A stretch of DNA of 64,000 nt from an uncultured Bacteroidota bacterium (GCA_963793485.1 CAWCAB010000001.1:270534-334533), one strand, 5' to 3'; shown: positions 13,374 to 40,455, counted from the first letter of the stretch. The notes: generated by a model not told the origin, from the letters alone. Made by a program: numbers and translations.

Positions 13374-13444
13374 TCAATTATTTACGACCTTAACTTTAAA
13401 CTAAACAATGTAGGAGGATTTAAGTTCAATTATGGATGATGGGC

Positions 13445-14339: not shown

Positions 14340-15992
14340 TCATCTTGTCATCAATATCTTCTGTGCAATTTTCTGCTTTCCTGCCTGTATGATGACAAAA
14401 TAGATGCCATCGGGTAAGGAGCCTCTATGATATGCCAGATCGTATTCTCCCGCTGCCTGGATCCCAGCATACAACTTCGCTACAAGTTGTCCGGAAATAT
14501 TAATTACACCGACTGAGATTTGCTGTCTTAATTTGTTCTTGTATGTAACGTGGCAGTCTTCCCTGCAGGGATTGGGGAAGCACCGGAGTCTTTCAATGGT
14601 CTGATTGGCCATTTTCTCACCTGGTAGCTCATCAAGTGAGGTGGTAATATCATAGTACCATACATAGGGCCCACCCCAGGAACCCATATCATTTCTCAAA
14701 GTCCCTTTTGAAGGCCACAATGCCATTCCCGGTAATCCCGGATCTTCCAGATCGTTATAAACCGGGTCAGGATCGCCGGTATCAATACAGGGTGATCCAA
14801 TATTCAAGAGATATAAGTAGTTGCCAAGTGTGGTAAAATTAGGTTCCTGGTCAATATTATTCTCATAGATGCCTTCATAATTCAGGTAAATCGCACCACC
14901 ATACCAGGTGCCGATGGAATCAATCCCTCCTTCAAGATCACAATAGTAGAAATCAGGATCTGAATCTTCGGAAAACAGGTGGATTTGAGGCCCATCAACA
15001 AAGGCAGTATTTCCCCACAGGATACAATTACGGAATACGGGGCTGGAATTCACTTCTACATCAATGCCACCTCCAAAAAGAGCAAAATTCTCAACTATTG
15101 TGTTGTTAATGAAAGTTGCCTGGCAGTTGCCTTCAAGGTCGGCGCCACCGCCCTCTTCATAAGCGACATTCGAATATATCAGGTTGTTTCTGACAATTGG
15201 ATTGCAATTGGTTTCAAGCTGCATAGCCCCACCATAATCAGCAAAGTTGCCTGCAAAAAGATTGGCCGTGATTTCATCATTGCATCCTGAATACATACTA
15301 ATGCCACCACCTGAATTGAATGCATGATTGTCGACAAAGAAACTTTTTGCAATACGGGATGATGAGCTGAAAGCAGCTATGGCACCACCATTTACTGCTA
15401 TATTATGAAAATAATTATTTTCTTCCAGGATAATACTTGCTTCGGCAATGGCAACAGCGCCACCTCCACTAAGTGCAGCATTTTTGTAAAAGAATGAATT
15501 GGAAATCATGAGATTGTCATACTGATATACAGCTATTGCTCCTCCGGATTGATCGAGGGATTGTTGACCGGTGGCTTTGCCAAATGCAAACATGCAATAT
15601 CTGAGCCTGGAAGAATCGATGGATGGTCCACCATATCCAAAACGGATACCGTGCCAGCCACCGTCAGGGATATTAATGTCATGCCATCCCGTAGAATCGT
15701 TGATGGTGAAAAGGATCGAATCATTTAGTGCACCTTCGGCAATCAATGAACCCTGAACCAGAAACTTATAATGTCCCTGAAACTCAACGGTAACCCCTGG
15801 ATTGATAACAAGGGATTGACCTGTTGCAATAAATATTTCACCCTGGATATAATAGGGTGACCCGCCAGGGGACCATGTGCCGCTTACAGCTCCGGCCGGG
15901 ACCGGGGTTTGGGCAGTTGATGATGTTGGGAATGCAATGACAATGGCAGAGATCAGAATAGTGATCAGCAGGTATGTTCTCCTTGTTTTCAT
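14340..15992 (-). CDS. T9SS cargo: right-handed beta-helix protein with Pmp-type (FxxN...GGAI) repeats
   Basis: The likely start is MKTRRTYLL at 15992. Repeated FYKNAALSGGGAVAI, FHNIAVNGGAIAA, FVDNHAFNSGGGISM and FAGNFADYGGAMQL. The C-terminal CFPNPCRED...DGIYFVIIQAGKQKIAQKILMTR is a T9SS CTD. Confidence 0.75.
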   Translation of the reverse strand: MKTRRTYLLITILISAIVIAFPTSSTAQTPVPAGAVSGTWSPGGSPYYIQGEIFIATGQSLVINPGVTVEFQGHYKFLVQGSLIAEGALNDSILFTINDSTGWHDINIPDGGWHGIRFGYGGPSIDSSRLRYCMFAFGKATGQQSLDQSGGAIAVYQYDNLMISNSFFYKNAALSGGGAVAIAEASIILEENNYFHNIAVNGGAIAAFSSSSRIAKSFFVDNHAFNSGGGISMYSGCNDEITANLFAGNFADYGGAMQLETNCNPIVRNNLIYSNVAYEEGGGADLEGNCQATFINNTIVENFALFGGGIDVEVNSSPVFRNCILWGNTAFVDGPQIHLFSEDSDPDFYYCDLEGGIDSIGTWYGGAIYLNYEGIYENNIDQEPNFTTLGNYLYLLNIGSPCIDTGDPDPVYNDLEDPGLPGMALWPSKGTLRNDMGSWGGPYVWYYDITTSLDELPGEKMANQTIERLRCFPNPCREDCHVTYKNKLRQQISVGVINISGQLVAKLYAGIQAAGEYDLAYHRGSLPDGIYFVIIQAGKQKIAQKILMTR

Positions 15993-16202
15993 AAGGAAAT
16001 GAATTAAGTAAACAATATGCCTGCTTTTTGCCTGAAGATAGGTCAGGCCTTTTAGGTACATGCCGAAAAGATGATTATTCCTGCATGAATTTCATGGACG
16101 AATACAGTCTCTTTTGTTTATAAGATATGGGTAATGATTTACTCAAAGATAACATAAAGTAGAAATGATTGCAAGTATAAAAGGTATATGTCACGACCTG
16201 TA

Positions 16203-16282
16203 CTTGATTATCGCTCTGTGATTTAGTATATTTACAGTACCAACGGTGAACCTTCCTTATGTTTTGCTTAATCAATAGCTGA
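16203..16282 (+). promoter_or_regulatory. conserved promoter/5'-leader cassette, copy C1 (only + strand copy)
   Basis: cttgattatcgctctgtgatttagtatatttacagtaccaacggtgaaccttccttatgttttgcttaatcaatagct. Matches the five minus-strand copies. TTG, about 20 nt, then TATATTTA resembles the Bacteroidetes -33/-7 pattern. Confidence 0.5.
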
Positions 16283-16449
16283 TATGCTATCAGCAGTATC
16301 CGATTAACGAAAAATACTTGTTAAATTGATATATAGATTACCCGAACATGTTTTTGTCTGCCCTATATGGGTGCATAAAGCAACAATAGCTTACTATATT
16401 AACAATTGCCAATGATTAGATTGAAAACGGAAATTAAACAAAAAACAAA

Positions 16450-17817
16450 ATGAAAACAAAATTACTTCTGTTACTTACATTTATGATTTATGTAAACACC
16501 CATGCTCAATTCGGCCCACAACAAATTATAACAACAAATGCAGTTGGGGCAATATCAGTTTACGCCACAGATATCGACGGAGATGGCGATATGGATGTGC
16601 TTTCTGCTTCTCAAAATGATGATAAAATAGCCTGGTATGAAAATACCGATGGCCAAGGAAGTTTTGGCTCGCAACAGATTATAACAATAAACGCAGATAA
16701 AGCAATATCGGTTTACGCCACAGATATCGACGGAGATGGCGATGTGGATGTGCTTTCTGCTTCTCAAAATGATGATAAAATAGCCTGGTATGAAAATATC
16801 GACGGAGAAGGTAATTTTGGTTCACAACAAATCATTACAACAAATGCAGATTATGCAGGATCTGTATACGCCACCGACATAGACGGAGATAAGGATATGG
16901 ATGTTCTTTCTGCTTCTCTTAATGATTCTAAAATAGCCTGGTATGAAAATATCGACGGACAAGGTAATTTTGGTTCACAACAAATTATAACAACAATTGC
17001 AGATGGGGCATTTTCAGTCTACACTGCCCATATAGATGGAGATGGCGATATGGATGTGCTTTCTGCCTCTTTTAATGATGGTAAGATAGCCTGGTACGAA
17101 AATACTGACGGACAAGGTAATTTTGGTTCACAACAAATCATTGCAACAAATGTAGCGGGAGCAAGACCCGTTTACGCTATTGATATAGACGGAGATGGCG
17201 ATATGGATGTGCTTTCTGCTTCTTATTATAATGATGAAATAGCCTGGTATGAAAACATTGACGGACAAGGTAATTTTGATTCGCAACAAATCATTACAAC
17301 AAATACAGATGGGGCCTATTGGGTTCATGCAAGCGATATAGACGGAGATGGCGATATGGATGTGCTTTCTGCTTCTGTTAATGATGATAAAATAGCCTGG
17401 TACGAAAATACCGATGGACAAGGGAGTTTTGGTTCACAACAAATCATTACAACAAATGCAGCTGAGGCAATGTCAGTTTACGCCACTGATATAGACGGAG
17501 ATGTTGATATAGATGTGCTTTCTGCTTCTTTTGATGATGATAAAATAGCCTGGTATGAAAATTTAACAACTTTGGCTATAAATCAAAACACATTAATAAG
17601 TTTTTCAATTTATCCAATACCAACAACAGGTGCTTTAATTGTTAAATCAAAAGCAAGCATTGCTCAAATAGAAATTTATAACAAGTTTGGTCAATTAATG
17701 ATGTCAAAATCAAACGAAAATAAGATTGATATATCTACCTTAAGTCAGGGTTTGTATTTCTGTAAAGTTAAAGATGAAAACGGTGTTTCTGGAATAAAAA
17801 AAATAGTGAGGGAATAG
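16450..17817 (+). CDS. T9SS cargo: seven-blade FG-GAP/VCBS beta-propeller protein
   Basis: 455 aa. Seven 51-aa repeats of the form FGSQQIITTNADxAxSVYATDIDGDGDMDVLSASxNDDKIAWYENTDGQGN. C-terminal T9SS CTD (FSIYPIPTTGALIV...GLYFCKVKDENGVSGIKKIVRE). Confidence 0.85.
   Translation: MKTKLLLLLTFMIYVNTHAQFGPQQIITTNAVGAISVYATDIDGDGDMDVLSASQNDDKIAWYENTDGQGSFGSQQIITINADKAISVYATDIDGDGDVDVLSASQNDDKIAWYENIDGEGNFGSQQIITTNADYAGSVYATDIDGDKDMDVLSASLNDSKIAWYENIDGQGNFGSQQIITTIADGAFSVYTAHIDGDGDMDVLSASFNDGKIAWYENTDGQGNFGSQQIIATNVAGARPVYAIDIDGDGDMDVLSASYYNDEIAWYENIDGQGNFDSQQIITTNTDGAYWVHASDIDGDGDMDVLSASVNDDKIAWYENTDGQGSFGSQQIITTNAAEAMSVYATDIDGDVDIDVLSASFDDDKIAWYENLTTLAINQNTLISFSIYPIPTTGALIVKSKASIAQIEIYNKFGQLMMSKSNENKIDISTLSQGLYFCKVKDENGVSGIKKIVRE
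16510..17575 (+). repeat. seven tandem 153-bp intragenic repeats (propeller blades)
   Basis: Long near-identical DNA stretches recur every 153 bp, e.g. gatatcgacggagatggcgatatggatgtgctttctgcttct...aaaatagcctggtatgaaaat. Confidence 0.9.
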
Positions 17818-18057
17818 TTGCATACGTTAGAGTTTCGCACGAGTGGGCTTATAGTATTAATCATCATCCCAGGTATTCTCATACACATGGTTTGATCGAA
17901 GAAAAGAGGAAAGGGAGGATTTTGTTTCAAGAGGTCTTAATTCTCTTGAAATCCCCGCCAACAGGATGACAGTTTTTGCTAAATGGGTTTGCTGGCCAGT
18001 AAGAATAGCAGCCAGTTTGGCATTGATTAGCCTTAATTTTAATTTTTCTCAGTTTTA

Positions 18058-18089
18058 TTTGTCCATAATAAATTGTTTATGTACTTTTG
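18058..18089 (+). promoter_or_regulatory. candidate Bacteroidetes sigma-A promoter upstream of tRNA-Ser
   Basis: TTTG at 18058-18061, 20 nt of spacing, then TACTTTTG (TAnnTTTG) at 18082-18089. About 90 nt upstream of the tRNA. Confidence 0.4.
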
Positions 18090-18132
18090 CCCCTCGCAAA
18101 ATAGAGGTCCGGGGATGGGGAAAGAGGCGTGA

Positions 18133-18174
18133 GGATTTTTTGGATTTTGATTTTTGGATTTTGGATTTTCCAAG
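18133..18174. repeat. heptanucleotide array immediately 5' of tRNA-Ser
   Basis: ggatttt ttggatt ttgattt ttggatt ttggatt ttccaag. Confidence 0.85.
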
Positions 18175-18177
18175 TTT

Positions 18178-18267
<90 letters not shown>

Positions 18268-18273
18268 GTAAAA

Positions 18274-18301
18274 GTTTTGGGTGTTGAGTTTTGGGTTTTG
18301 A
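18274..18301. repeat. heptanucleotide array immediately 3' of tRNA-Ser
   Basis: gttttgg gtgttga gttttgg gttttga. Confidence 0.85.
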
Positions 18302-18472
18302 ATTATTATCAATTAACTTATACCTTAAACTCTAAGCCGATCGTTCTTTAACAGGTACATTTAAAATTGTACATACAGAATACAGAATTGTAAATTATTC
18401 GGGGTATAGCCCTTCGGCATGCTCAGGATAAACTCCGTCCGGTTAGCGGAGTAAAATAAATAACGAATAGTA

Positions 18473-18547
18473 CGGGGTATAGCGCAGTCCGGTTAGCGCA
18501 CCTGCTTTGGGAGCAGGGGGTCGTAGGTTCGAATCCTACTACCCCGA
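18473..18547 (+). tRNA. tRNA-Pro (anticodon UGG)
   Basis: Acceptor stem CGGGGTA/TACCCCG. D arm GCGC-AGTCCGGTTA-GCGC. Anticodon stem-loop CCTGC-TTTGGGA-GCAGG. T arm GTAGG-TTCGAAT-CCTAC. Discriminator A, with no encoded CCA. Confidence 0.95.
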
Positions 18548-18558
18548 CAACAAACAAA

Positions 18559-18589
18559 AGCCTCACACGATAGTGTGGGGCTTTTTTTA
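18559..18589 (+). terminator. rho-independent terminator after tRNA-Pro
   Basis: gcctcacac / gtgtggggc hairpin (one U-G pair) followed by ttttttt. Confidence 0.75.
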
Positions 18590-18658
18590 TGCCCGGAAAC
18601 TGCAAGCTTGCTTGTAAGTTTTTGGGCATGAAAAAAGACCATAAGGAGCGAAGCGAGT

Positions 18659-19172
18659 GGGCTTTTGTTTATTGTACCCCCCCCAAGGGATCAGCGAGCG
18701 AAGCGAAGCTAATCCTACCCGAGAAGTGCCTAAAGTATTGGAGTGCCTAGAGTGCCTAAAATGAAGGAGGGCCTTTTGTTGTTGTACCCCCCCCAAGGGA
18801 TCAGCGAGCGAAGCGAAGCTAATCCTACCGAGAAGTGCCTAAAGTATTGGAGTGCGCTAGAGTGCCTAAAGTTAAGCAGTGGGCTTTTGTTGTTGTACCA
18901 CCCCCCAAGGGATCAGCGAGCGAAGCGAAGCTAATCCTACCCGGGAAGTGCCTAAAGTTTGGAGTGCGCTAGAGTACTTAGAGTTTTGCGGGCTTTTGTT
19001 GTTGTACCACCCCCCAAACGGATCAGCGAGCGAAGCGAAGCTCATCCTACCGAGAAGTGCCTAAAGTACTTGGAGTGCCTAGAGTGCCTAAAATGAAGCG
19101 AGTGGGCTTTTGTTTATTGAGCCACTTCCCAAGGGATCAATTTCACGAAGTGGAGTTAATCCTACTACCCCA
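18659..19172 (+). repeat. tandem array of a ~110-nt unit (four full units of 110/112/109/114 nt plus a divergent partial fifth)
   Basis: Units start at 18659, 18769, 18881, 18990 and 19104. Consensus: gggcttttgttgttgtaccccccccaagggatcagcgagcgaagcgaagctaatcctacccgagaagtgcctaaagtattggagtgcctagagtgcctaaaatgaag. Unit lengths are not multiples of 3. Confidence 0.95.
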
Positions 19173-19184
19173 ACTTGAATATCA

Positions 19185-19216
19185 AGGACTTACGAGCAAT
19201 CGTGAGTCCTTTTTTA
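19185..19216 (+). terminator. rho-independent terminator distal to the repeat islet
   Basis: aggacttacg (19185-19194) pairs with cgtgagtcct (19201-19210), followed by a T-run. Confidence 0.7.
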
Positions 19217-19779
19217 TTTCCGGTGTCAACATGGTGTCAGCTACCTGACAGCAAACTTCCTGTTTCCGACCACTTTTCTTTCCGATAACAGTACTGCCGT
19301 ATAAATCCCATGGGGATAACCTATACGCTATTCCATATTAACAAATTCCCCTATAACAAAGTAATACACATATTTATTCCTCACAATATATAACGAATCT
19401 GAACCTCTGTTTTTATATACTGAATCATTAATTTGAAGAAAATTGTTAAGGGAGGTGCATATTCCTGTCAAACTGAGCAGGTCATTCCTGGCCAAATTGA
19501 GTAGTCTTTTTCAATTATAGCAGATTACAGATATTGACGATAACCAGCTAAATGTCAAATAAGAAATTGCTTCATCTAAACAGGAGTTACATGCTTTGCT
19601 AAAACAGGAATCAGCTGTTTTCCTTGATAGGATTTTCCAGACAGTAAACTTATTTGATTTTTAAACCAACTTTTTGGCGTCGATTGGAAAGATTGACTGC
19701 ACAATCTTGAAATTCGCTTTAAGATTTTGTACCTTGTCAGGTTAATGGAGAAGTCATGAGCCTTCAATAGACAGTACTT

Positions 19780-20583
19780 ATGTATACTAAAAAGCCATCG
19801 GATCAAGAACTTAGAAAGATTTCCCGGGAAGTCCGGGCTGAAATTATCAGGAGCCTTGCTGAAGCTGGCTCAGGGAACACCGGAGGCTCTCTTGAATTGG
19901 CCGATATTTTCACCTGCCTGTATTTTGGTGTTATGAAACACCATTGCCAGGATCCGGGTACTAAGGAACGTGATCGCCTGATCCTCTCCATTGAACATGT
20001 TTCTTCTGTACTGTACGCTGCCATGGCCATGGCAGGATGCTTCTCTCGGGAGGAATTAAATACCCTAAGGGAACTAGGATTACCTGGCAACAAGGACTCC
20101 TCAGTATCAGCAGGACAAGGCTTATCTTTAGCTATTCAATTGGCCATCAATGCCAGAAAGGAGAACAAAGATTACCATATCTACAGCATACTCAAAGATG
20201 GGGACCTGGATGAGCGCATCGTACGGAAAGCAGCCATGAAAGCCGCTCATAACAATCTCAGCAAGCTAACGATTCTCCTCAACAGGAATAGAGCACCAAA
20301 CGATGACAAGGCGGTAGGTGTAAAGAGCATTGAACTAACTACCGAAAAATGGAAATCTTTTGGCTGGCATGTGATCCATTGTGATGGCCATGTGCATGAA
20401 GAGGTGTTTTCTGCCTATGAAGAAGCCATAAATACCAATGAAAAACCGAGTGTGATCCTGGCAGATACAATCATGGGAAAAGGTGTTTCCAGTATAGAGG
20501 GAGACCAATACTGGCAAAGCAAGGCCCCTTCGAAAGCAGAAGCGGAGGATTTCCTCAAGGAAATAGAAAAGGGTATCTCATGA
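19780..20583 (+). CDS. transketolase N-terminal-subunit homolog, catalytically degenerate, with no partner C-terminal subunit
   Basis: 267 aa, colinear with split transketolase N-subunits. SGNTGGSL replaces SGHxGGSLS, LSIEHVSS replaces LSKGH, GNK replaces GHP, KDGDLDER replaces GDGExxEG. Confidence 0.6.
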   Translation: MYTKKPSDQELRKISREVRAEIIRSLAEAGSGNTGGSLELADIFTCLYFGVMKHHCQDPGTKERDRLILSIEHVSSVLYAAMAMAGCFSREELNTLRELGLPGNKDSSVSAGQGLSLAIQLAINARKENKDYHIYSILKDGDLDERIVRKAAMKAAHNNLSKLTILLNRNRAPNDDKAVGVKSIELTTEKWKSFGWHVIHCDGHVHEEVFSAYEEAINTNEKPSVILADTIMGKGVSSIEGDQYWQSKAPSKAEAEDFLKEIEKGIS

Positions 20584-20602
20584 TACTTCAATTAAAGTGA
20601 CA

Positions 20603-20675
20603 GGAAGCGAATCTAATCCTGGACAGAAGTGCCTAAAGTACTTGGAGTGCCTGGAATGACGCTTTTATTGTTGTT
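20603..20675 (+). repeat. dispersed partial copy of the 110-nt tRNA-Pro-islet unit
   Basis: ggaagcgaatctaatcctggacagaagtgcctaaagtacttggagtgcctggaatgacgcttttattgttgt aligns with the central and 3' part of the tandem unit. Confidence 0.8.
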
Positions 20676-20702
20676 CCTCCTCCCTTTCCTCATTTTATCG
20701 CC

Positions 20703-21320
20703 TTATTCTACAGAATACAGAACGCGTAAATAATCAATACCTACCTTTTGTTTTCCGTGAATTTTAAAACCAACCATATTACCAAAAAAGCTTTGAAAAG
20801 GATTTACTGCAATAAGAGAACCATTTGAATAAAATTTTAATTCGTCCCCTTCTTTTATTATCATCAGCCTATTTGTACTTCCTACTCCTATATTGATATA
20901 TTCACTTTCTGTCCAGGGTATAATTTCTGTTTCTTTGCCATTTCTTTTTTTAAAAAATTTGAATTCGCCTCTATGGTTTATTATGAAACAATAATAATTT
21001 TTCACATCTGAGAAGCCAAAACAGATTCCGTATCCGTTTGTTTTACTTGTACTTATTTTTGTTATTGATGTTTCTATCTCAAAATTTTTACTTTCATCTA
21101 TTTCCATCTTATACGTTACCTTCACAGCTCCCCTCTTCTTTAGGACTTCAATATAATAATAGCCATCTTCTATGCTGTATGATACTGACTTACCATCCTG
21201 CGAAAAAGGTCTATTGTAATTGAATTCATCGAAATATAGCATTCGACATTTGGACTGAGCCAGTGAAGATGAATTAATTAAAATGCAAAACAGAGTTATA
21301 ATAATTGGAATATTTCTCAT
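20703..21320 (-). CDS. hypothetical secreted protein
   Basis: 205 aa with a signal peptide (MRNIPIIITLFCILINSSSLAQ). Preceded by cassette copy C2. Confidence 0.55.
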   Translation of the reverse strand: MRNIPIIITLFCILINSSSLAQSKCRMLYFDEFNYNRPFSQDGKSVSYSIEDGYYYIEVLKKRGAVKVTYKMEIDESKNFEIETSITKISTSKTNGYGICFGFSDVKNYYCFIINHRGEFKFFKKRNGKETEIIPWTESEYINIGVGSTNRLMIIKEGDELKFYSNGSLIAVNPFQSFFGNMVGFKIHGKQKVGIDYLRVLYSVE

Positions 21321-21421
21321 AGCTCCACTATTTGAGGTTAATAGCCATTGATTAAGCAGAGCATTTGGAGGGTTCTCCTTTGGAGATGTAAATATACTAA
21401 ATCACAGAGGCTTAGTCAAGG
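21321..21421 (-). promoter_or_regulatory. conserved promoter/5'-leader cassette, copy C2
   Basis: Sense strand: ccttgactaagcctctgtgatttagtatatttacatctccaaaggagaaccctccaaatgctctgcttaatcaatggctattaacctcaaatagtggagct-ATG. Confidence 0.5.
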
Positions 21422-21504
21422 TTTTGAGTGTTGGGTGTTGGATGTTGAATTATTTTCGATTTTCGATCCTCGATTTTCGATCCTCCTTGTTCCTCTGTTC
21501 TCTA
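21421..21504. repeat. heptanucleotide tandem array, 12 units
   Basis: gttttga gtgttgg gtgttgg atgttga attattt tcgattt tcgatcc tcgattt tcgatcc tccttgt tcctctg ttctcta. Confidence 0.95.
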
Positions 21505-21585
21505 TTCTACCAGGAGCTTCTGCCTGATCTTCCTGCCCTCAACCGTCACCTCCACGATGTACATAGCGGAAAGTATAACATTAAT
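21502..21585 (-). pseudogene. 27-codon relic of a T9SS C-terminal sorting domain (3' gene fragment only)
   Basis: The reverse strand reads (stop)INVILSAMYIVEVTVEGRKIRQKLLVE*. There are 8 mismatches in 63 nt against the 3' end of the 28307-29857 gene (manual alignment). An in-frame stop lies immediately upstream. Confidence 0.8.
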
Positions 21586-21717
21586 CTAAGCTATATGATA
21601 AATAGTTGTGGGCCCACCAGGAGTTGAGCGATTATCTAATCTCTTGTAACACAATTAACTAAAAATCTACAAATTAAAAATGCGGGTGAAATGTATGACA
21701 CTCAAAATTGGCCAGGT

Positions 21718-22146
21718 CTACTTTCTAACCACCAGCAGATGCGCTTTATGACTTGCCCTTGTTTTTACACAACCTATGATCTGGCCGCTAATGGTTTCCT
21801 CTTCGTTTATTGTAGCAAATACCTTATGTATATTTTCTATTTGCTCTGAATCAGAACCTAAGGTAACATCAACACCATTTGCACGGTATGCTATCCATGA
21901 GCCACACTGCATACAATCATCAACTGTCAGCACTATGGCATACTTATATTTAGCGTCAATAGTCAGTGTGTCAGTGCTAATCTCGGTGAATACGCTGATA
22001 TCGAAGTAACCTTCTTCAACGATCTCCCACATATCATCTATGAGTTCATCTTTTGCAGCATTAACTACTGTTTTCATCTCTTCCGTCTGAGCGAATAATG
22101 TGCTAACACACATTGACATTAAAACAATAATCAATAGTTTTTTCAT
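21718..22146 (-). CDS. hypothetical secreted protein
   Basis: 142 aa with a signal peptide (MKKLLIIVLMSMCVSTLFAQ). Preceded by cassette copy C3. Confidence 0.55.
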   Translation of the reverse strand: MKKLLIIVLMSMCVSTLFAQTEEMKTVVNAAKDELIDDMWEIVEEGYFDISVFTEISTDTLTIDAKYKYAIVLTVDDCMQCGSWIAYRANGVDVTLGSDSEQIENIHKVFATINEEETISGQIIGCVKTRASHKAHLLVVRK

Positions 22147-22247
22147 AGCTCTACTATTTTAGGTTAATAGCTTATGATTAAGCAGAGTATAAGGAAGGTT
22201 CTCCTATGGTCCTGTAAAGATACTAAATCGCAGGGCCAGAATCAAGG
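22147..22247 (-). promoter_or_regulatory. conserved promoter/5'-leader cassette, copy C3
   Basis: Sense strand: ccttgattctggccctgcgatttagtatctttacaggaccataggagaaccttccttatactctgcttaatcataagctattaacctaaaatagtagagct-ATG. Confidence 0.5.
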
Positions 22248-22468
22248 TGTTGGGTGTCTGGTGCTGAGATCCACACCAGCAGATTTAAATCTATAATTAC
22301 ATCCTCTGCTTTCGTCTCTTCTTTACCGGGATAATATTATAGATTCTTATTTGGATGCTTTTTCTTAGGCCGATTAATTTCGAAATCCCAATTCTCCTTG
22401 GTGCCAGAAAATCCCAGATGGATATATTTACTTTTCCCTTGCTCTTTTGATTCAGTGTTTAGAATACA

Positions 22469-24334
22469 TTAATCCTTCACGCAGCGGCACCCGAAATAGG
22501 CGGCATCATTTATAGGACCAAGTATAGCACCTAAAGAGATTCCGTAGGATGAAAACCCAGCTTCTTCGAAGCTATTCAAGCCAAAGGTTAAAATTTGAGC
22601 AGGATCGTTATTAATGAATGACGATGTCCAAAAAGCAGCGCCATTACCTATCCCGCGATAGGTTCCAAGGGCAGTGTTGAAATACCCCTGTGCCAATCCA
22701 TTGAATTCACTGGAGTTGCGCAGCGGATCCGTAAGGCTTTGAGGGTCATCATTCCACGTTAGGGCCGACTTTAACTTAATACCCACTTTTTCTGATATGC
22801 CAAGAACGCCTGACGTATCTGTATTTATCTGACTGCCACCTATTTCGCTTATCATTTTGTTCAACTCCTCCCGGGTAGGAAGGTGCCAGCCTTCCGGGCA
22901 GATACCCTGAACAGCCTGCCCACCGGGAGGAACCGGGTCGTCACCGTTCAACATTTGCAAGGGCTGATACAAGCGTCCATAACTGCTGCAATTTCCCGGA
23001 CTATCATCATAACATTTACTGCCGGGCGCGTTATATCTCAAATTTTCAACCATCCATGTTTTACCGCCAATACACTCATATTTATAGGTCTCTCCATCTC
23101 TTGGATCTGTGAAAGTGCCCGCATCGTCACACCCGCCATAGCACCATGTTGGCGATTTGAAATGTTTGAAATATAATTTTTTTCCTTCTCTTGGTTTATA
23201 TAATCCAAATTCGGAACCATCGGACTGAAGATGTGCGATACCTGTGCTGTCTTTATCATTGATCAGCGAATTGATGAGAGAGTCTTCCATTTGTTTGCTA
23301 AAGAGGTTGTCTACAGTACTGGAGCGCAAATCATTGAAAGCATAAGCATAATAGCTAATTGGATTTTTATTAATAAACGCGATACCCATAACGAGTTTCG
23401 AATACCCTGTTTTTGTAATGCCACTGTAGCACATATTGGCAAAGACCACCGTATTGGGTAAATCAGGTGATGCTTTAATATATTCTGAGGTTATCCAAAG
23501 TTCATATTCCCGGTTTTCTATTGAATGAATTGGTGAATTATACCAGTCAATATTGGAGATAAAAAAGTCACACTTTGCCGTTACACCTAATTTACATTTC
23601 CCGGTCAGTAATTTGTCATAATTGGCACTTCCGATTTTCTGAATGATGTAGGCTTTGAATTGGCTGGAATCTGGCGGCGGTGTGGAAGTAACGGAAAATT
23701 TAGTTCCCGTCAGGAACGAAATACCCGCCCCATGCGTATCCATGATCACAAGGCCATAATCCTTAAATGTTTCGAACACTTCAGGGGTGCATTGTGCATC
23801 TTTCAACAGGGTAACCTCATACTCCTGGTCCGCATTGGCAAAGAGATCCAGTATTCTTTGCATTTCTGCTTGTTTATAAAACTCACTGTATGCGGCTGCA
23901 TAGATCAGGACTTTTTTGTTCTCAATGATGTTGGAGCAACCTTCTGATGACGACTGCAAATTGGTTAATCTGCCTCCGGAAGAACCGCCTCCGCGATAAA
24001 CACTGAATCCATCCTGGTCTATTTCGTTGAAGTGAAACATCGTTTGAAGGCCTGTGGTCATTTGTATATGGATGTAGATGCTATCAACCACTTCCGTGGT
24101 AGCAACCCCGGCTTGTGTTCTTATCCAATCATCGGTAAGCATAATGGCTTCACATGGATTGCCATTTGTGGTGGCTGCAAAATCAAGAAATTGATCGTAA
24201 GTTTTGTTTAAGAGCATATACACCTCAAACATAGCACGGTCCGTTTCTTCACTGTTTGTAATATCATCTTTCTTTTTACAGTTGAATAAGAGGAGGATTG
24301 CAAGTAGAAATGTTAATGATGTTTTCCAGTTCAT
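22469..24334 (-). CDS. large lipoprotein with C-terminal FISUMP domain
   Basis: 621 aa. Lipobox LLLFN-C followed by KKKDD. C-terminal ~200 aa: WMVENLRYNA...CPEGWHLPTREELNKMI...FWTSS...CRCVKD. Confidence 0.75.
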   Translation of the reverse strand: MNWKTSLTFLLAILLLFNCKKKDDITNSEETDRAMFEVYMLLNKTYDQFLDFAATTNGNPCEAIMLTDDWIRTQAGVATTEVVDSIYIHIQMTTGLQTMFHFNEIDQDGFSVYRGGGSSGGRLTNLQSSSEGCSNIIENKKVLIYAAAYSEFYKQAEMQRILDLFANADQEYEVTLLKDAQCTPEVFETFKDYGLVIMDTHGAGISFLTGTKFSVTSTPPPDSSQFKAYIIQKIGSANYDKLLTGKCKLGVTAKCDFFISNIDWYNSPIHSIENREYELWITSEYIKASPDLPNTVVFANMCYSGITKTGYSKLVMGIAFINKNPISYYAYAFNDLRSSTVDNLFSKQMEDSLINSLINDKDSTGIAHLQSDGSEFGLYKPREGKKLYFKHFKSPTWCYGGCDDAGTFTDPRDGETYKYECIGGKTWMVENLRYNAPGSKCYDDSPGNCSSYGRLYQPLQMLNGDDPVPPGGQAVQGICPEGWHLPTREELNKMISEIGGSQINTDTSGVLGISEKVGIKLKSALTWNDDPQSLTDPLRNSSEFNGLAQGYFNTALGTYRGIGNGAAFWTSSFINNDPAQILTFGLNSFEEAGFSSYGISLGAILGPINDAAYFGCRCVKD

Positions 24335-24494
24335 GGCGATTATTTTTTTTGCGACACTAATATTTATCTAAATTGCATATGATGTTGCTTAACTTGATCA
24401 TTTGGCAACCTTTTGTTTCTTTATACACCAATACAGGGTCGTAAGCAAGAGGACTGAGCGATGTAGACGATTGAGCGAGCTAAGGATTTCCAGC

Positions 24495-25841
24495 TTACTT
24501 CATCAATACCATCTTTCCACCACCAACCTTATCTCCAGCCTGAATCCAGAAGTAATACATTCCAATAGACAGTCCTTCAGCGTTCCATTGTACCTTCTGT
24601 TCGCCCTTAGTCTGTTCCTGAACGATCTTCTCGACGAGCTGACCTTGGGGGTTGAAGATGTTTATTGTAACGGTAGAAGGCTTCGAGAGGGTATAGGAGA
24701 GCGTTGTTGAGGTGGTGAAGGGATTGGGGTATTGATAAATTGTAATACTATTCGTATTTGACAATGACAACTCCTTTAAGCCCACCCCAGAATTGTTCGT
24801 ATGCAATATCGTACCACTATCGGCTGCAATCCATCCTTCTTCCTCATTGATAAAGCATACACTGTTTAACCTTTGTTTTGTTCCTGCATCTTGTTCTATC
24901 CAGCTATCTCCGCCGTCTTGTGTATGAAGTATAAGAGACCATTCATAAGATGTCGACCACATTCCTCCTACTGCCCATCCTGTGTTATTGTTGATAAAAC
25001 AGACACTTGTCAGTGCATAATCCAGGCTATTTGTCGTATTGTAGAATGTTGAATCCCATTGGATGCCTCCATTGTTCGTTCGAAGTATGCTTGGAATTGG
25101 TTCAAAACCCCATATTCGATTAATCCCCACAGCCCATCCATTTTCAGTGTCTGTGAAACATACACTATTTAATGGGGAATAAACACCTACGGAGTTGATT
25201 TGCTCTTCCCAGGTGATACCACCACTTGTCGTTTTAAGGATGGAACAATATGGTTGTCCGCTGCTGCCGGCGACAAAACCACCAACCACCCATCCGGTAT
25301 CAGGATCAGTAAAATGTATGCTTTTTAAAGGCATAAGGTAAAATGGTTCTTGCCTGTACCAGCTTATACCACCATCATCACTGTGAAGGATTGTACCACG
25401 TATCAGCCAACCAACGCTGTATGATCCCACTGCCCATCCATGAAGTGAATCGGTAAAGTAAATGTCAGTTAACCAACACAAAGAATCAACATACACCTCC
25501 TCCCAACTTAACCCTCCATTACAAGTTCGCAAAATAATCCCAAGTTCTGGATGCTTATACATCCCACCAGCAATCCAGCCATTGAGAGAATCTATAAATC
25601 TGACACTCCGTAAATAGTTGTCTGTCCCACTTAATTGTTGAAACCAATTATCTCCACCATCTGATGTATGCAGGATAATGCCCTCAGATCCAACTGCCCA
25701 ACCATTATCATTGTCAACAAAGAATATACTCGTTAAACTATTGTTTGTTCCGCTATTTTGAGGTAGCCATTGAGCAAATGCACCATCTATGGAGAATAGT
25801 GATAAGTGAACTGCAATTACAATTGTTGCAAATATTTTCAT
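24495..25841 (-). CDS. T9SS cargo: BNR/Asp-box beta-propeller protein (Ycf48/sortilin-like)
   Basis: 448 aa. Repeated Asp-boxes SDGGDNW, CNGGLSW, DDGGISW, TSGGITW, NNGGIQW and QDGGDSW. C-terminal CTD (YQYPNPFTTSTTLSY...GMYYFWIQAGDKVGGGKMVLMK). Confidence 0.8.
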   Translation of the reverse strand: MKIFATIVIAVHLSLFSIDGAFAQWLPQNSGTNNSLTSIFFVDNDNGWAVGSEGIILHTSDGGDNWFQQLSGTDNYLRSVRFIDSLNGWIAGGMYKHPELGIILRTCNGGLSWEEVYVDSLCWLTDIYFTDSLHGWAVGSYSVGWLIRGTILHSDDGGISWYRQEPFYLMPLKSIHFTDPDTGWVVGGFVAGSSGQPYCSILKTTSGGITWEEQINSVGVYSPLNSVCFTDTENGWAVGINRIWGFEPIPSILRTNNGGIQWDSTFYNTTNSLDYALTSVCFINNNTGWAVGGMWSTSYEWSLILHTQDGGDSWIEQDAGTKQRLNSVCFINEEEGWIAADSGTILHTNNSGVGLKELSLSNTNSITIYQYPNPFTTSTTLSYTLSKPSTVTINIFNPQGQLVEKIVQEQTKGEQKVQWNAEGLSIGMYYFWIQAGDKVGGGKMVLMK

Positions 25842-25941
25842 AGCTCTACTATTTTAGGTTAATCGCTTTTGATTAAGCAGAGCGTAAGGAGGATTCCCCT
25901 TGGTGGTGTAAATATACTAAATCACAGGGCGATAAGCAAGG
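25842..25941 (-). promoter_or_regulatory. conserved promoter/5'-leader cassette, copy C4
   Basis: Sense strand: ccttgcttatcgccctgtgatttagtatatttacaccaccaaggggaatcctccttacgctctgcttaatcaaaagcgattaacctaaaatagtagagct-ATG. Confidence 0.5.
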
Positions 25942-26071
25942 TGTTAGGTCTTGGGTGCTAGGTGTTAGGTGTTGGATGCTGGATGCTGGATGCTAGATGC
26001 TGGATGCTGGATACTGGATACTTGATATTCGATACTCGTTGCTCGATACTCGATATTCCATGTCCGTTATT
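25939..26071. repeat. heptanucleotide tandem array, 19 in-phase units
   Basis: aggtgtt aggtctt gggtgct aggtgtt aggtgtt ggatgct x3 agatgct ggatgct ggatact x2 tgatatt cgatact cgttgct cgatact cgatatt ccatgtc cgttatt. Confidence 0.95.
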
Positions 26072-26073
26072 TA

Positions 26074-28176
26074 TTATTCAACAATCAGTTTCCGTCTGAG
26101 CCTGGTATTCTCGATACTGACCTCCACGATGTACATGCCTGTTTTTAGGTGTGAAATATCAATGCTGCCATTTACAGGTCCTGCTTGTAATATTTTTTGT
26201 CCCGTAATGCTATAAATTGACACCTCGTTTATTGTGCTTCCTTTAGCTGAAATATTAAGTTCCTGGTGTGCTGGATTGGGATAAATCCTAAGATCATTCA
26301 TGATATTATTGGATGGTACTGAAGATTGCCCGATATATACAGTAAATGAATCCATTCGCTCGGTAAAACCTGCTGAAGCAATAATTTGAATTTTTGATGA
26401 GCCTGTATTGGCCAATGCTTCGAGCGTTAAAATACTTCCATCAAGTGTTGCCTGAACTGTATCGGAACTTCCGTTGTGGTAAATTGAAAACGTTAGCGTG
26501 TCACCGACTATGGCCGGGACAGTATCTCCTTTCATGAAATGATAGTGTTCCCTCAGATCAATATTTGTTGAGTGGCCTGTGCCTTCTAAATCCAGGTTAG
26601 CAATGCGTGGGCTGTACTGAATGTAATTTGTTGCGTTGAAATCGATCACAAGCGCACTATCCTCGATTGCCCTGAAGAACTGGTTCGAGTGTACATCGAT
26701 ATATTCATCGACATGTCCTGATGGCCAGCGGATGAGCAGGGTGTCGATTACATCGGCATCACCAAGGCCAAAATGAACCGGGGTGTAAGCAAAAGCAACG
26801 TTCCCATCAATGAGGGCGATTTCCCGGGTTTGACAAACATATTTACCATCAATCATGGTTTTGGCATAAATACGCGTTCCATAGGGTGTAGCACAATTAA
26901 ACTTATCAACACATGATATTGAAATGGAAGAATTGTCATTACCTTCGTTAATATACAAATGGTTATGACCTAATGCATCGTATGCATTTCCAATGGTTAA
27001 AACATCCAGGTCACCATCATTATCGTGGTCAAATACTTTTGCTGTATGTCCTTCACCAAGGCTTAAAGTATGATTGAGCAAATTTGTAAACTGTCCATTG
27101 CCATCATTCAGGCACAGAATATTATATAGGGTTGGGGAATATAGTCCTTCGTAGGGACCTGAAAAAGGATAAGGCCCATCTTCAAGTGTGATAAACAGGT
27201 CCTGATCGCCATCATTATCCAAATCACACCAATACGATGAGATTGTAAAAGAACCTTTGTATGATTCGTCAAGTAAAATATGTTTTTCAAATTCCAGGTT
27301 GCCCAGGTTTTCGTAAAGTGCCGGCAGCAGGCCATTTATCGTATCCGGATCTTCGTGAATGACGCAAAGATCCATATCCCCATCATTATCATAGTCGACC
27401 CAGTTTACACTGGGAGTCATGGAAGTATCACTTAATGTAATATGATTTTCGTCAACTTGTTCCAGGGAATCCCCCGTGTTTATGAAAAATGCATTTTTTG
27501 CTACCTTTGAAAATCCACAATACACATCCATATCCCCGTCATTATCAGCATCGCCCCAGGCCATTGAATGCAACCAATCACTTGTTGGTCTGTTGATATT
27601 GGTAATGGTCTCTCTGTCAGGAAATTTACCATTTCCATCATTGTAAAAAACTCTTACAGTTAAGGAAAAATATAATAAGTCTAGATGTCCATCCTTATTA
27701 TAGTCCAATAAAACAGGATAAGATGAATTAAAACTGTTCTGGACATTAATACTGGTGTCGGATAAGAAATTACCATAACCGTCATTAACAAAGACACCTA
27801 TTTTGTCAAAATTAGAATTTGCTATGACATCAATATCCCCATCATTGTCAATATCGCCCATTGGGCTGGGATGAAATACCTCAAAGGCATTACTATATTC
27901 TGGTAAGAATATTTTTTGTTGTATATAAATACCTGTTCGTTCATTCTTGTATAGTGTGAGAGGAGATGCAGTAATACCAATAGCATTTTTGTTGGAGATT
28001 ATAGGATCAAGATCTCCATCATTATCAATATCAAAAAGGATTCCAGAGAATCGTGCAAGGGTACCTTGTGACTCGTAAATACTGCCTGTATCAATCCGGG
28101 TAAATTCGGGAAACTGGGCATTTAAAACGAGGAGGAAAGCAAACAGAAATAAATTGGTGATGAATAACTTTTTCAT
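26074..28176 (-). CDS. T9SS cargo: FG-GAP/VCBS repeat protein with ASPIC/UnbV-like region (CRTAC1-like)
   Basis: 700 aa. Repeated DxDxDGDxD calcium-type motifs (DIDNDGDLD, DIDNDGDID, DADNDGDMD, DYDNDGDMD, DLDNDGDQD, DHDNDGDLD). LIRWPSG motif. CTD: IYPNPAHQELNI...GMYIVEVSIENTRLRRKLIVE. Confidence 0.85.
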   Translation of the reverse strand: MKKLFITNLFLFAFLLVLNAQFPEFTRIDTGSIYESQGTLARFSGILFDIDNDGDLDPIISNKNAIGITASPLTLYKNERTGIYIQQKIFLPEYSNAFEVFHPSPMGDIDNDGDIDVIANSNFDKIGVFVNDGYGNFLSDTSINVQNSFNSSYPVLLDYNKDGHLDLLYFSLTVRVFYNDGNGKFPDRETITNINRPTSDWLHSMAWGDADNDGDMDVYCGFSKVAKNAFFINTGDSLEQVDENHITLSDTSMTPSVNWVDYDNDGDMDLCVIHEDPDTINGLLPALYENLGNLEFEKHILLDESYKGSFTISSYWCDLDNDGDQDLFITLEDGPYPFSGPYEGLYSPTLYNILCLNDGNGQFTNLLNHTLSLGEGHTAKVFDHDNDGDLDVLTIGNAYDALGHNHLYINEGNDNSSISISCVDKFNCATPYGTRIYAKTMIDGKYVCQTREIALIDGNVAFAYTPVHFGLGDADVIDTLLIRWPSGHVDEYIDVHSNQFFRAIEDSALVIDFNATNYIQYSPRIANLDLEGTGHSTNIDLREHYHFMKGDTVPAIVGDTLTFSIYHNGSSDTVQATLDGSILTLEALANTGSSKIQIIASAGFTERMDSFTVYIGQSSVPSNNIMNDLRIYPNPAHQELNISAKGSTINEVSIYSITGQKILQAGPVNGSIDISHLKTGMYIVEVSIENTRLRRKLIVE

Positions 28177-28217
28177 AGCGCTACTATTTTAGGTGAGGCT
28201 TTTGATTAAGCAGAGCA
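28177..28217 (-). promoter_or_regulatory. conserved leader cassette, copy C5 (3' part only; promoter part replaced)
   Basis: Sense strand: ...ctgctctgcttaatcaaaagcctcacctaaaatagtagcgct-ATG. The gtgatttagtatatttaca block is absent. Confidence 0.4.
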
Positions 28218-28239
28218 GTGGGTTTCCCGGTCCCCTTCA

Positions 28240-28309
28240 TGATTTTGGAAGATGGATGTTGGATGATAGATTATTTCATCATTCCATGTTCCCTGTTCTT
28301 TATTCGTTA
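28240..28309. repeat. heptanucleotide tandem array, 10 units
   Basis: gattttg ggaagat ggatgtt ggatgat agattat ttcatca ttccatg ttccctg ttcttta ttcgtta. The last unit contains the stop codon at 28307-28309. Confidence 0.9.
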
Positions 28310-29857
28310 TTCAACCAGCAACTTCTGCCTCACCTTCCTTCCCTCAACCATCACCTCCACGATGTACATGCCTGCCTGAAAGTGTGAGATGTCTACAGTA
28401 CCATTCTCAGGAAGGGCTTTCATTACCTGCTGACCAGTGAGGGTGTATATAATTAACTCATCTACCTCTCTGCCTTCGTCAAGTGAAATATTTAGCTCCT
28501 TATAGGCAGGGTTGGGATATAACACTAGATTGTTCTTGAGATGAATACCATCGATTACTCCTGCATGAGCTAAACAAGAATCATACACTTCTTCCTGACT
28601 ACTGCAACCATCTGCGTTACCATGAAGATTAACTTCTCCACCAGCTGCAGCAAGATAATCACAAATACTCTTTACATCACAGGTAGATAAATTTTTGTTT
28701 GCCCAAACAGTTACATCTGTTATTGAAGCTGCAGAAATATTGTCTAATCCTTCTAATGATGCCAATGTATCGTTTAAAATAATGTGAAGACCACCAACCG
28801 AAGTCAGTCCCTCCAGTCCCGTCAGGCTGGTTAATAAAGGATTACATACATATGCCCATTCCCCGATATGAAGGCTCCCACTAATGGAAGTCAGTTCGCT
28901 TAAGCCTATGAGGTTAGTAATATCATTGTCGCCGGAAATGACGATATCACCTCCAATTTCAGTACAACCAGGGTAGTTGGATTGAAAATCATCAATGTCG
29001 CTTTGACTTAAGAAGTAATAATTCCCAAAAGGCAGACAGGGTAAAGAAATGCCACAAGCATTTGCTATTTCTTTAGGACTATTACACCCCAGCGCGTTAC
29101 TATGTATTTCAACCCTGCCTTTGGGATTTTCAAGGTAACTGCATATACTTTGTGATTCGCAATTAGACAAAGAATTATTGTATCTGATAATCATGTTTCC
29201 ATCAATCAACAATCCGCTGTTCAATCCTGTAAAACTTTCTAAGCTAATATTACCTTGAATACTAACCTTCCCCCCAATATAGGTAAGCCCTCCTAAGCCC
29301 GTTAAAGAAGTTAAAGACGAATTCCCAGCTGTTCCAAATACGAAGTCCTTATCAACAGCATAACCAATGTTGAGAGTTTCACCTATTGTAGATAAGTTAT
29401 CAAGGCCAGCTAGACTGGACAGGGAATCATTACAATATATAGATAGACTTCCTCCAATCGAAGTAAGATTGCTTAATGCAGATAAATCACTCAAGTTTGG
29501 ATTGCTTTGGCATTCTACCGGTTGAAATGGCATTGCATTCATACTCCACCCCCCAATATTTAAACTTCCTCCAATATTAGTCAGGCTTTCCAAGCCCCTG
29601 AGATTTGTCAGGGCAGTATAGCCGATGCGCAGGGTTCCTCCGATTGTTCTTAGAACACTTAATCCATTCAGATTGGCTATGTCATAACCCTCTATTTCGA
29701 CACCACCTTCAATCTCCGTACAATTTGGATAGTTGATTTGAAAGCTGTCAATCTGTGCCTGTGTTTCAAATCTGATACCCTCAGGCAAACAGGATTGGGA
29801 CGATACAGTTATCTGAAAGCATACCAGGACAAGGACGATAATAGATAATTTTCTCAT
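28307..29857 (-). CDS. T9SS cargo: leucine-rich-repeat (receptor L-domain-like) protein
   Basis: 516 aa. Two lobes of LxxLxxIGGxLxIxxNxxLxSLxGL repeats separated by Cys-rich modules. CTD: LYPNPAYKELNI...GMYIVEVMVEGRKVRQKLLVE. Confidence 0.8.
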   Translation of the reverse strand: MRKLSIIVLVLVCFQITVSSQSCLPEGIRFETQAQIDSFQINYPNCTEIEGGVEIEGYDIANLNGLSVLRTIGGTLRIGYTALTNLRGLESLTNIGGSLNIGGWSMNAMPFQPVECQSNPNLSDLSALSNLTSIGGSLSIYCNDSLSSLAGLDNLSTIGETLNIGYAVDKDFVFGTAGNSSLTSLTGLGGLTYIGGKVSIQGNISLESFTGLNSGLLIDGNMIIRYNNSLSNCESQSICSYLENPKGRVEIHSNALGCNSPKEIANACGISLPCLPFGNYYFLSQSDIDDFQSNYPGCTEIGGDIVISGDNDITNLIGLSELTSISGSLHIGEWAYVCNPLLTSLTGLEGLTSVGGLHIILNDTLASLEGLDNISAASITDVTVWANKNLSTCDVKSICDYLAAAGGEVNLHGNADGCSSQEEVYDSCLAHAGVIDGIHLKNNLVLYPNPAYKELNISLDEGREVDELIIYTLTGQQVMKALPENGTVDISHFQAGMYIVEVMVEGRKVRQKLLVE

Positions 29858-29947
29858 GGCTCCACTATTAAAAGTTAACAGCTATTGATTAAGCAGAGCA
29901 TAAGGAAGGTCCTGTAAAGATACTAATTTACAAGGCCATAATCAAGT
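29858..29947 (-). promoter_or_regulatory. conserved promoter/5'-leader cassette, copy C6
   Basis: Sense strand: acttgattatggccttgtaaattagtatctttacaggaccttccttatgctctgcttaatcaatagctgttaacttttaatagtggagcc-ATG. Confidence 0.5.
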
Positions 29948-30081
29948 TGGGTTGACAGCACACCATATTCTCCAGCTGGCGCTCGTCCGTGACGAGTGCC
30001 TTATGTGAGATCCTCGCCAGCGGGGCGAAGCGCTAATTACGATAGCGCCAATTACTGATTTACTTCCGAATTCTCCTTCCC

Positions 30082-40434: not shown

Positions 40435-40455
40435 CTTCTTACTATATTTGTAATA

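Follow-up and report, generated by a model that had tools for sequence, protein, structure and literature searches.

A cassette of about 105 nt, consisting of a promoter, a linker and a conserved leader core, is repeated upstream of genes for exported proteins in a 64,000-nt stretch of DNA from an uncultured Bacteroidota bacterium (GCA_963793485.1, CAWCAB010000001.1:270534-334533; the whole stretch is referred to below as the window). On balance we favour the interpretation that it is a housekeeping-type promoter combined with a 5' untranslated region (UTR) acting at translation initiation, and that this module is reused from gene to gene, having spread by recombination within arrays of surface-protein genes. 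A single control of expression is probably common to the genes that lie behind it.

Six copies in the window

Searches with a profile hidden Markov model and with a covariance model (R1, filters off) each found exactly six copies in the window. In the covariance-model search these have E-values from 3e-19 to 3e-8, and the next match has an E-value of 0.46. The core sequence GCTCTGCTTAATCAANAGC has six true matches in the window at up to 2 mismatches, against 0.05 by chance, and the promoter block CTGTGATTTAGTATATTTACA has four at up to 3 mismatches, against 0.00 by chance. When core and promoter were searched as separate profiles with nhmmer, five full cores, one half core and five promoters were recovered, with no others in the 64 kb. 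A seventh core-like match at 58849-58867, with 3 mismatches, lies inside a histidine-kinase gene and was taken as a chance occurrence. The first-pass annotation had described six similar copies of about 100 nt, and reading, alignment and profile searches place all six where it had put them. Their likeness is less complete than proposed: c1 is degenerate and c6 is 11 nt short in the linker. Four of the six copies (c2, c3, c4 and c6) are complete. The copies and the genes behind them are as follows (CTD, type IX secretion system, or T9SS, C-terminal domain; LRR, leucine-rich repeat).

c1, 16203-16285, plus strand: degenerate, with promoter, linker and 5' core block; TTG 16204-16206, -7 box TATATTTA 16227-16234, predicted transcription start about 16239, 5' core block 16261-16279 (plus strand)
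3' end of c1, 16286-16345: 26-nt insertion after AATCAATAGCTGATA, then a decayed 3' block, with the ATG changed to ATA
Gene behind c1, 16450-17817: 455 aa, FG-GAP and CTD
c2, 21318-21424, minus strand: complete; TTG 21417-21419, -7 box 21389-21396, predicted transcription start about 21384, 5' core block 21344-21362, ATG 21318-21320; upstream of a gene for a secreted protein, 20703-21320, 205 aa, no domains found
c3, 22144-22250, minus strand: complete; TTG 22243-22245, -7 box TATCTTTA 22215-22222, predicted transcription start 22210, 5' core block 22170-22188, ATG 22144-22146; upstream of a gene for a secreted protein, 21718-22146, 142 aa, no domains found
c4, 25839-25944, minus strand: complete; TTG 25937-25939, -7 box 25909-25916, predicted transcription start 25904, 5' core block 25865-25883, ATG 25839-25841; upstream of a T9SS cargo gene, 24495-25841, 448 aa, BNR/Ycf48-like and CTD
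c5, 28174-28218, minus strand: leader core only, without the promoter module; 5' block 28198-28216, ATG 28174-28176; upstream of an FG-GAP/T9SS gene, 26074-28176, 700 aa, FG-GAP and CTD
c6, 29855-29950, minus strand: complete, linker 11 nt shorter; TTG 29943-29945, -7 box TATCTTTA 29915-29922, predicted transcription start 29910, 5' core block 29881-29899, ATG 29855-29857; upstream of a T9SS cargo gene, 28307-29857, 516 aa, Receptor-L/LRR and CTD

The FG-GAP gene behind c1 begins about 165 nt further on, at 16450, and c1 would appear to drive this gene through a long leader. Copy c5 lies on the same strand as gene 28307-29857, 83 nt past its stop codon.

Anatomy and conservation of the cassette

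Relatives were sought in GTDB species genomes and metagenome contigs by one scan each with leader patterns, followed by a profile search of the fetched loci (L numbers below). About 75 further copies were found, in six Bacteroidales/Bacteroidetes metagenome-assembled genomes (MAGs) and about 30 metagenome contigs, giving about 80 copies overall. These further copies nearly always end at the ATG of a signal-peptide protein, and one MAG (MFD03804.bin.2.200) has at least 18 copies over seven loci. The window is identical to none of the relatives; locus L003, from MFD03804.bin.2.200, is 84-88% identical over the shared genes. The anatomy was compared over 55 distinct copies and segment identities over 51, both drawn from 29 sources.

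The three parts of the unit occur apart in some copies. The promoter reads (c)TTG-N20-TA(t/c)(a/c)TTTA(C). It is followed by a linker of 15-40 nt with many insertions and deletions and by a core of 39-43 nt, in which GCTCTGCTTAATCAAnnGC is separated by 6-10 variable nt from AAATAGTrGAGCT-ATG (as RNA, GCUCUGCUUAAUCAAnnGC, the 6-10 variable nt and AAAUAGURGAGCU, up to the AUG).

The distance from the TTG to the -7 box is 20 nt in 54 of the 55 distinct copies and 21 nt in the remaining one. The -7 box is TA(T/C)(A/C)TTTA in all 55, matching the consensus at 7 of 8 positions and never having G at -10 or -9, and TTG and TAnnTTTAC stay in register even where the spacer between them is unrelated (L011_2912, L009_3485, L011_4411 and L011_6748). 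The Bacteroidetes housekeeping consensus is TTTG / TAnnTTTG (TAHHTTTG), with the -7 box at -12 to -5 (PMC6847099, PMC7366714) and the published TTTG -33 element some 19-21 nt upstream of the -7 element. The cassette thus resembles the housekeeping (sigma-ABfr) promoter in its -33 TTG, its -7 TAnnTTT, its spacing and the exclusion of G from -10 and -9 (TAHHTTT). It differs in having CTTG rather than TTTG as the -33 element, A rather than G at -5, and a spacer, CTGTGATTTAG, far more conserved than in ordinary promoters (mean pairwise identity 0.77). By its spacing, and because its elements outlast divergence of the spacer, TTG / TAnnTTTA behaves like a Bacteroidetes -33/-7 promoter, as had been suggested. 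Other genes in the window have canonical TAnnTTTG promoters upstream of them, one example being at 16174 (minus strand).

Usually the linker holds a run of purines and, complementary to it, a run of pyrimidines (GGGGAACCUUCC). The hairpin that these could form, close to the mRNA's 5' end, was ruled out as an essential element: it is weak (-1.4 to -6.8 kcal/mol, with a mean z of -1.36), and about 10 of 46 variants lack it.

Conservation alternates along the unit. Mean pairwise identity is 0.93 in the -7 box, 0.90 in the 5' block and 0.85 in the 3' block, and outside the module it is 0.40 in the coding sequence from +10 to +33 and 0.34 in the upstream flank. Sequence and length both vary freely in the 6-10 nt that separate the two core blocks. 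Since variable stretches alternate with invariant ones in the same copies, and since the core still shows about 90% identity in MAGs where the protein-coding genes beside it share only 70-76% nucleotide identity with the window (L002), the core and promoter blocks are under purifying selection and not merely young. The conserved leader extends right up to the AUG, as first described, and complete cores end at the ATG. The distance from the core to the ATG is 39-43 nt with a standard deviation of 1.1, against 15-40 nt and 4.9 from promoter to core.

The modules can also be separated. Core-only copies (c5, L007, L025_2954, L021_169 and L002) all lie 83-180 nt 3' of a same-strand open reading frame (ORF), so the core is kept even without the promoter module. 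The promoter occurs with a different leader in L011_1419, L031_3027, L047_1647 and L020_2060, and single core blocks are also found, the 5' block in c1, L010_7247 and L029_1028 and the 3' block in L025_1404.

Genes behind the cassette

Taking all copies together, 52 of 56 downstream proteins of at least 30 aa have signal-peptide-like N-termini, in line with the earlier proposal that the cassette serves secreted proteins. Among the 51 of at least 100 aa, 25 have a Por_Secre_tail (T9SS CTD), a minimum count as about 12 of the 51 end at contig edges; 22 have a Recep_L_domain (Receptor-L paralogs), 8 Fib_succ_major and 5 FG-GAP. Fib_succ_major lipoproteins, along with small secreted proteins, are among those without the CTD. 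Of the window's six CTD genes, two (8302-9549 and 14340-16061) have no cassette, nor has the Fib_succ_major gene 22469-24334 inside the array. The cassette is tied to exported and surface proteins in tandem same-strand arrays and not strictly to T9SS cargo. The original label of T9SS cargo, which fits the 25 CTD proteins and leaves out the rest, should be widened to exported proteins.

By blastp and blastn, likeness among the six window genes is limited to 28% similarity in the FG-GAP repeats and to the CTD. Because the downstream genes are otherwise unrelated, the cassette is not part of a gene-including duplication, and a segmental duplication extending into the coding sequence was ruled out. 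Together with the segment identities, this comparison locates the conservation in the regulatory module and not in the genes, which agrees with the first description.

Role of the leader core

We envisage that the module provides the array genes, which include T9SS cargo, Fib_succ_major lipoproteins and other exported proteins, with a common transcriptional and, most likely, translational setting. Transcription would start about 5 nt past the -7 box, and the core would act within the mRNA, where pairing of its two blocks could cover positions -2 to -9 before the AUG and leave exposed a loop rich in A and U. In Bacteroidetes, where Shine-Dalgarno sequences are lacking, initiation is tuned by structure around the start codon; for this reason translation initiation may be set or regulated by the helix, or by a factor that binds the invariant UGCUUAAUCAA. 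Initiation in this group is favoured by adenines at -3, -6, -12 and -13 and by low structure, and the AAA at -11 to -13 of the core fits such an A-rich initiation region. The fixed distance to the ATG, the core-only copies and this AAA speak for a role of the core in translation initiation, within the mRNA. The module would then have been copied and homogenised by recombination or gene conversion, with only those fusions persisting that join it at a gene's own ATG.

GCUCUGCU can pair with AGURGAGC over 8 bp, covering -2 to -9. Over 59 cores, 96.4% of the helix cells are paired, compared with 22-51% when the 3' strand is slid, and the helix is present in the minimum-energy fold of 5 of 7 leaders (z -0.4 to -3.5). 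The pairing of GCTCT with RGAGC put forward in the first-pass annotation is therefore sound in its geometry; the helix is longer than the 5 bp proposed, and the covariation offered in its favour is at the level of shuffles. The 8-bp helix is compatible with the sequences and is advanced here as a hypothesis.

A number of observations weigh against the interpretation set out above. Column shuffles of the same 59 cores give 96.1% paired cells, the columns hardly varying, and the double changes seen at two pairs (G-C to A-U and C-G to U-A) are equalled by 30 of 500 shuffles. Adding the linker hairpin leaves the covariation at shuffle level (111 of 500 shuffles equal it over 46 full leaders). RNAalifold does not predict the long helix and gives only a 3-bp GCU/AGC hairpin. 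The helix is lost from the fold of c5, which has a U-C mismatch, and an A-C stands at the closing pair in 5-7 copies. As the blocks can occur apart, in the single-block copies listed above, the helix is not indispensable. The loop UUAAUCAA is conserved beyond what a helix needs, and the fixed distance to the ATG may partly reflect common descent. In the promoter, the nearly invariant G at -5 is replaced by A in every copy (TTTAC or TTTAT). Finally, the start of transcription, the transcription of the core, its action as RNA, the function of the helix and the mode of spread are steps that we infer from sequence.

Comparison with Rfam 15, which the first-pass annotation had called for, yielded no family at the cassettes, either at gathering score over the whole window or at E-values up to 10 over 15.5-31 kb; the scan of the window returned two tRNAs and noise only. 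Like the cis-regulatory leaders of Bacteroidetes in Rfam, the cassette is a lineage-restricted conserved 5' UTR element before a coherent set of genes. Unlike them, it has no Rfam 15 match and no significant covariation, and on the latter ground it does not at present count as a structured RNA family.

It is possible, and suggested here only tentatively, that the core is a new cis-regulatory mRNA element of Bacteroidetes in which UGCUUAAUCAA, beside the 8-bp helix, docks a dedicated small RNA or RNA-binding protein and so couples translation of T9SS cargo and surface lipoproteins to secretion capacity or to an environmental signal. Conservation of the loop UUAAUCAA points to sequence-specific recognition by some partner. 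No antisense partner for the core was found at up to 3 mismatches on either strand of the window. Such docking would make the mRNAs of dozens of T9SS cargo proteins and surface lipoproteins a post-transcriptional secretome regulon.

A role for the core as a DNA operator seems doubtful. Here a transcription factor would bind GCTCTGCTTAATCAAnnGC downstream of the start, as a roadblock, repressor or activator, and co-regulate transcription of the secretome. Conservation of the primary sequence of the 5' block at 0.90, beyond the need of a helix, would be consistent with this, as would the weak dyad GCTT-N6-AAGC in that block. The truncated copies c1, L010_7247 and L029_1028, moreover, hold promoter, linker and 5' block together, and a gene for an AraC-family regulator (12780-13373) lies 3 kb away. 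However, the distance between promoter and block ranges from 15 to 40 nt with no helical phasing, the block is kept in copies that have no promoter module, and the conserved 3' block, which reaches the ATG, is needless for a DNA site. The dyad is itself lost in the AATGGC variants.

It is improbable that a dedicated alternative sigma factor, in place of the housekeeping sigma, reads the promoter. The A at -5 in every copy and the conserved spacer would suit it, but the positions of the elements, the 20-nt spacing and seven of the eight -7-box positions fit the sigma-A consensus. Promoters for extracytoplasmic function (ECF) sigma factors carry a GGAAC-like -35 and a CGT-like -10 element at a fixed spacing; no such GGAAC ... 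CGT architecture is found here at a fixed distance. An ECF-type promoter within the leader (GGAACC ... TCAA) was rejected because the linker GGAACC holds no fixed distance to any element downstream, moving by as much as 25 nt; it is also absent in about 10 of 46 linker variants. No sigma, anti-sigma, recombinase or integrase gene was found among 40 scanned ORFs of the window, a set that left out a few short or housekeeping-looking ORFs. The dedicated sigma/anti-sigma promoter considered at first is accordingly not supported, the architecture being of housekeeping type with the A at -5 as its sole oddity.

We consider it equally improbable that only the promoter is functional and that the rest is alike because the copies are young or gene-converted. 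Near-identical cassettes do occur before unrelated neighbours, copies within one genome tend to have the same linker variants, and rearrangement is rampant in the arrays. Against this, blocks that are 85-93% identical coexist in the same copies, over the 29 sources, with a linker and inter-block nucleotides that are much changed; the core outlasts the divergence of its flanking genes (L002), and core-only copies persist.

A leader that encodes an upstream ORF (AUG CUC UGC UUA AUC AAx ...; MLCLI...) or an N-terminal extension of the downstream gene is extremely unlikely and was rejected: an ATG directly precedes CTCTGC in at most 40 of 59 copies (68%), opening 8-9 codons that end in the variable region, but it is replaced by ATA, ACG, CAG, AAG or CTG in about one third. 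Invariance is equal over all codon positions, including the synonymous ones, and the region changes in length by steps other than multiples of three. In 38 of 59 copies, an in-frame stop stands no more than 10 codons upstream of the main ATG.

Spread and rearrangement of the arrays

The cassettes L012_884 and L012_2679 differ at 1 position in 120 nt and stand before a Receptor-L gene and a Fib_succ_major gene, respectively. The 142-aa gene is preceded by c3 in the window, and its L003 ortholog has an unrelated upstream region, with the homology breaking exactly at the ATG. The FG-GAP gene is found in three states. In L019 and L050 it is fused straight at the ATG of the cassette; in L003 and L051 the junction lies about 100 nt further upstream and keeps that ATG in frame; and the window has the decayed junction seen at c1. 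In the in-frame fusions (L003 6471-7976; L051 about 2464) a 50-residue N-terminal extension is predicted, which would bury the signal peptide, and their true start is probably an internal TTG.

The gene order in L003 is 142-aa gene, relic CTD, cassette and FG-GAP gene. In the window, the 142-aa gene and relic CTD are followed by c2 and the 205-aa gene, and the FG-GAP gene lies behind c1 on the opposite strand. We infer that 16283-21320 is inverted between c1 and c2 relative to L003 (5623-7976), with both breakpoints inside cassettes. This segment holds the FG-GAP gene, two tRNAs, a 110-nt array, a transketolase ORF and the 205-aa gene. The transketolase ORF (19780-20583) comprises the N-terminal part only, with no C-terminal partner beside it. 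The relic itself is as follows.

21493-21564, minus strand: relic 3' end of a CTD, MYIVEVTVEGRKIRQKLLVE followed by a stop, no ORF attached, just upstream of c2

Its DNA is 85% identical to the end of gene 28307-29857, and the same relic stands upstream of a cassette in L003 (6240-6300). It marks a past recombination or deletion in the array. CTDs are also swapped between orthologs, and together these two observations show recombination at the conserved 3' ends as well. To account for these events, no more is needed than ordinary homologous recombination or gene conversion, combined with selection for junctions at the ATG.

It is very unlikely that the cassettes are recombination sites of a programmed rearrangement like that of Mycoplasma vpma, vsp or vsa, in which a promoter is moved among silent surface-protein genes. 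Copy c1 is inverted relative to the other five, the 16283-21320 segment is opposite to L003 with both ends inside cassettes, c5 has no promoter, and in vpma the conserved leader from -1 to -72 is the recombination site (PMC2268961). However, five of the six window copies and most copies elsewhere have their own promoter, and in one-directional arrays (five of six copies on the same strand) inversion cannot swap genes. The ORFs scanned in the window contain no recombinase domain, none of the cassettes is flanked by inverted repeats, and the single inversion is explained by homologous recombination between inverted repeats of about 80 nt.

Two further kinds of element were considered. No inverted repeats of at least 12 nt bracket any cassette within 500 nt, and an inverton (the invertible promoter of Bacteroides type) was rejected on this ground. 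A miniature inverted-repeat transposable element or other mobile element was rejected on inspection, since the copies have no terminal repeats and nearly all face a start codon; target-site duplications were not searched for.

Relation to known systems

The closest described concept is promoter reuse by putative mobile promoters (Matus-Garcia, Nijveen and van Passel 2012; PMC3575422). These are upstream sequences of at least 50 nt, about 80% similar, before non-paralogous genes, common to related genomes, with no known mobile element and with promoter and/or post-transcriptional function. The cassette shares these traits. At a threshold of at least 80% over at least 50 nt, c1 matches the c4 and c2 arms over 51 nt at 84% and 78 nt at 81%; c2, c3, c4 and c6 match among themselves over 79 nt at 78-81%, and the six window genes are non-paralogous neighbours. 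The cassette differs from putative mobile promoters in running through the whole 5' UTR to the ATG, in being tied to one functional class, exported proteins, and in its tandem arrays and high copy number, at least 18 within a single MAG and a total of about 80; the survey of 2012 covered only -150 to -50 and mostly found pairs (PMC3575422). The cassette is a new family within a known phenomenon, the reuse of promoter and leader.

The vpma/vsp systems of Mycoplasma (PMC2268961) also combine a surface-protein family, a near-identical leader up to the start codon and mosaic coding regions, and one inversion between leader copies is seen for the cassette as well. In those loci one promoter serves genes that lie in both orientations, and a tyrosine recombinase gene is adjacent, whereas most cassettes have their own promoter, the arrays are one-directional and no recombinase lies nearby among the scanned ORFs. 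In Flavobacterium psychrophilum (PMC9723704) tandem LRR-type T9SS cargo genes are co-regulated, 17 of them being induced by fish plasma; as far as consulted, that report describes no shared promoter/leader cassette, and the cassette is found also before non-LRR and non-T9SS genes. The SigP motif proposed for the T9SS machinery genes of Porphyromonas is unrelated to the cassette.

Little is known of the coordination of T9SS cargo expression, in distinction from that of the secretion machinery, or of translation control in Bacteroidetes, which do not use Shine-Dalgarno pairing. The placing of one promoter and leader before dozens of exported proteins unrelated to one another, in an uncultured lineage from sediment, amounts to a natural experiment on both, with natural variants that have no promoter, no 5' block or no 3' block. 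Should the core turn out to be a site of translational control, a secretome regulon would be defined by it and Bacteroidetes would gain a portable expression part; if it is not, the cassette is a well-documented case of promoter/leader reuse and of recombination-driven mosaicism in surface-protein arrays.

Other features of the window and its relatives

In many copies the start codon is followed by 6-9 A (ATGAAAAAAAAA), for example in L012_884, L005_4506 and L025_6827. Such runs could slip in replication, and the resulting frameshifts could switch genes off. Very short ORFs follow a few cassettes (L005_5592, 12 aa; L008_722, 27 aa; L024_3807, 29 aa).

Just 3' of the tRNA genes 18178-18264 and 18473-18547, at 18650-19139, lies a tandem array of 4.4 copies of a 110-nt unit (86% matches). 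It matches no Rfam family, and an isolated partial copy lies 1.5 kb away at 20604-20658.

Tandem repeats of period 7 (also as 14 or 21) occur at 15 or more intergenic sites, with a unit that differs from site to site (CCAGTAT, TGGATGC, CGAGTAA, GGCAGTA, CTAGTAC and others):

4958-5029, 7337-7391, 10416-10487, 13442-13590, 18133-18169, 18273-18301, 21452-21485: period-7 repeats
25939-26055, minus strand: period-7 repeats between the stop of gene 26074-28176 and the c4 -33 element
38265-38335, 39386-39415, 40406-40436, 43716-43762, 45177-45270, 52562-52632, 57517-57541, 60838-60910: period-7 repeats

Most of these tracts lie just past stop codons or between convergent genes. Several adjoin the -33 element of a cassette, and like tracts are found upstream of c2 (21426-21485) and c5 (28239-28272). 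Those near cassettes belong to the 3' side of the upstream gene. The relatives carry period-7 repeats too (CATAATC, CAACATC). They resemble the STRR heptamer repeats of cyanobacteria, and they could be terminators, Rho-loading regions or spacers.

An [FeFe]-hydrogenase maturation cluster extends over 45253-56791 and includes HydF, radical-SAM HydE/G-like proteins, a histidine kinase with a hydrogenase domain, NuoF/NuoE-like subunits and several response regulators; its presence indicates that the source organism is anaerobic.

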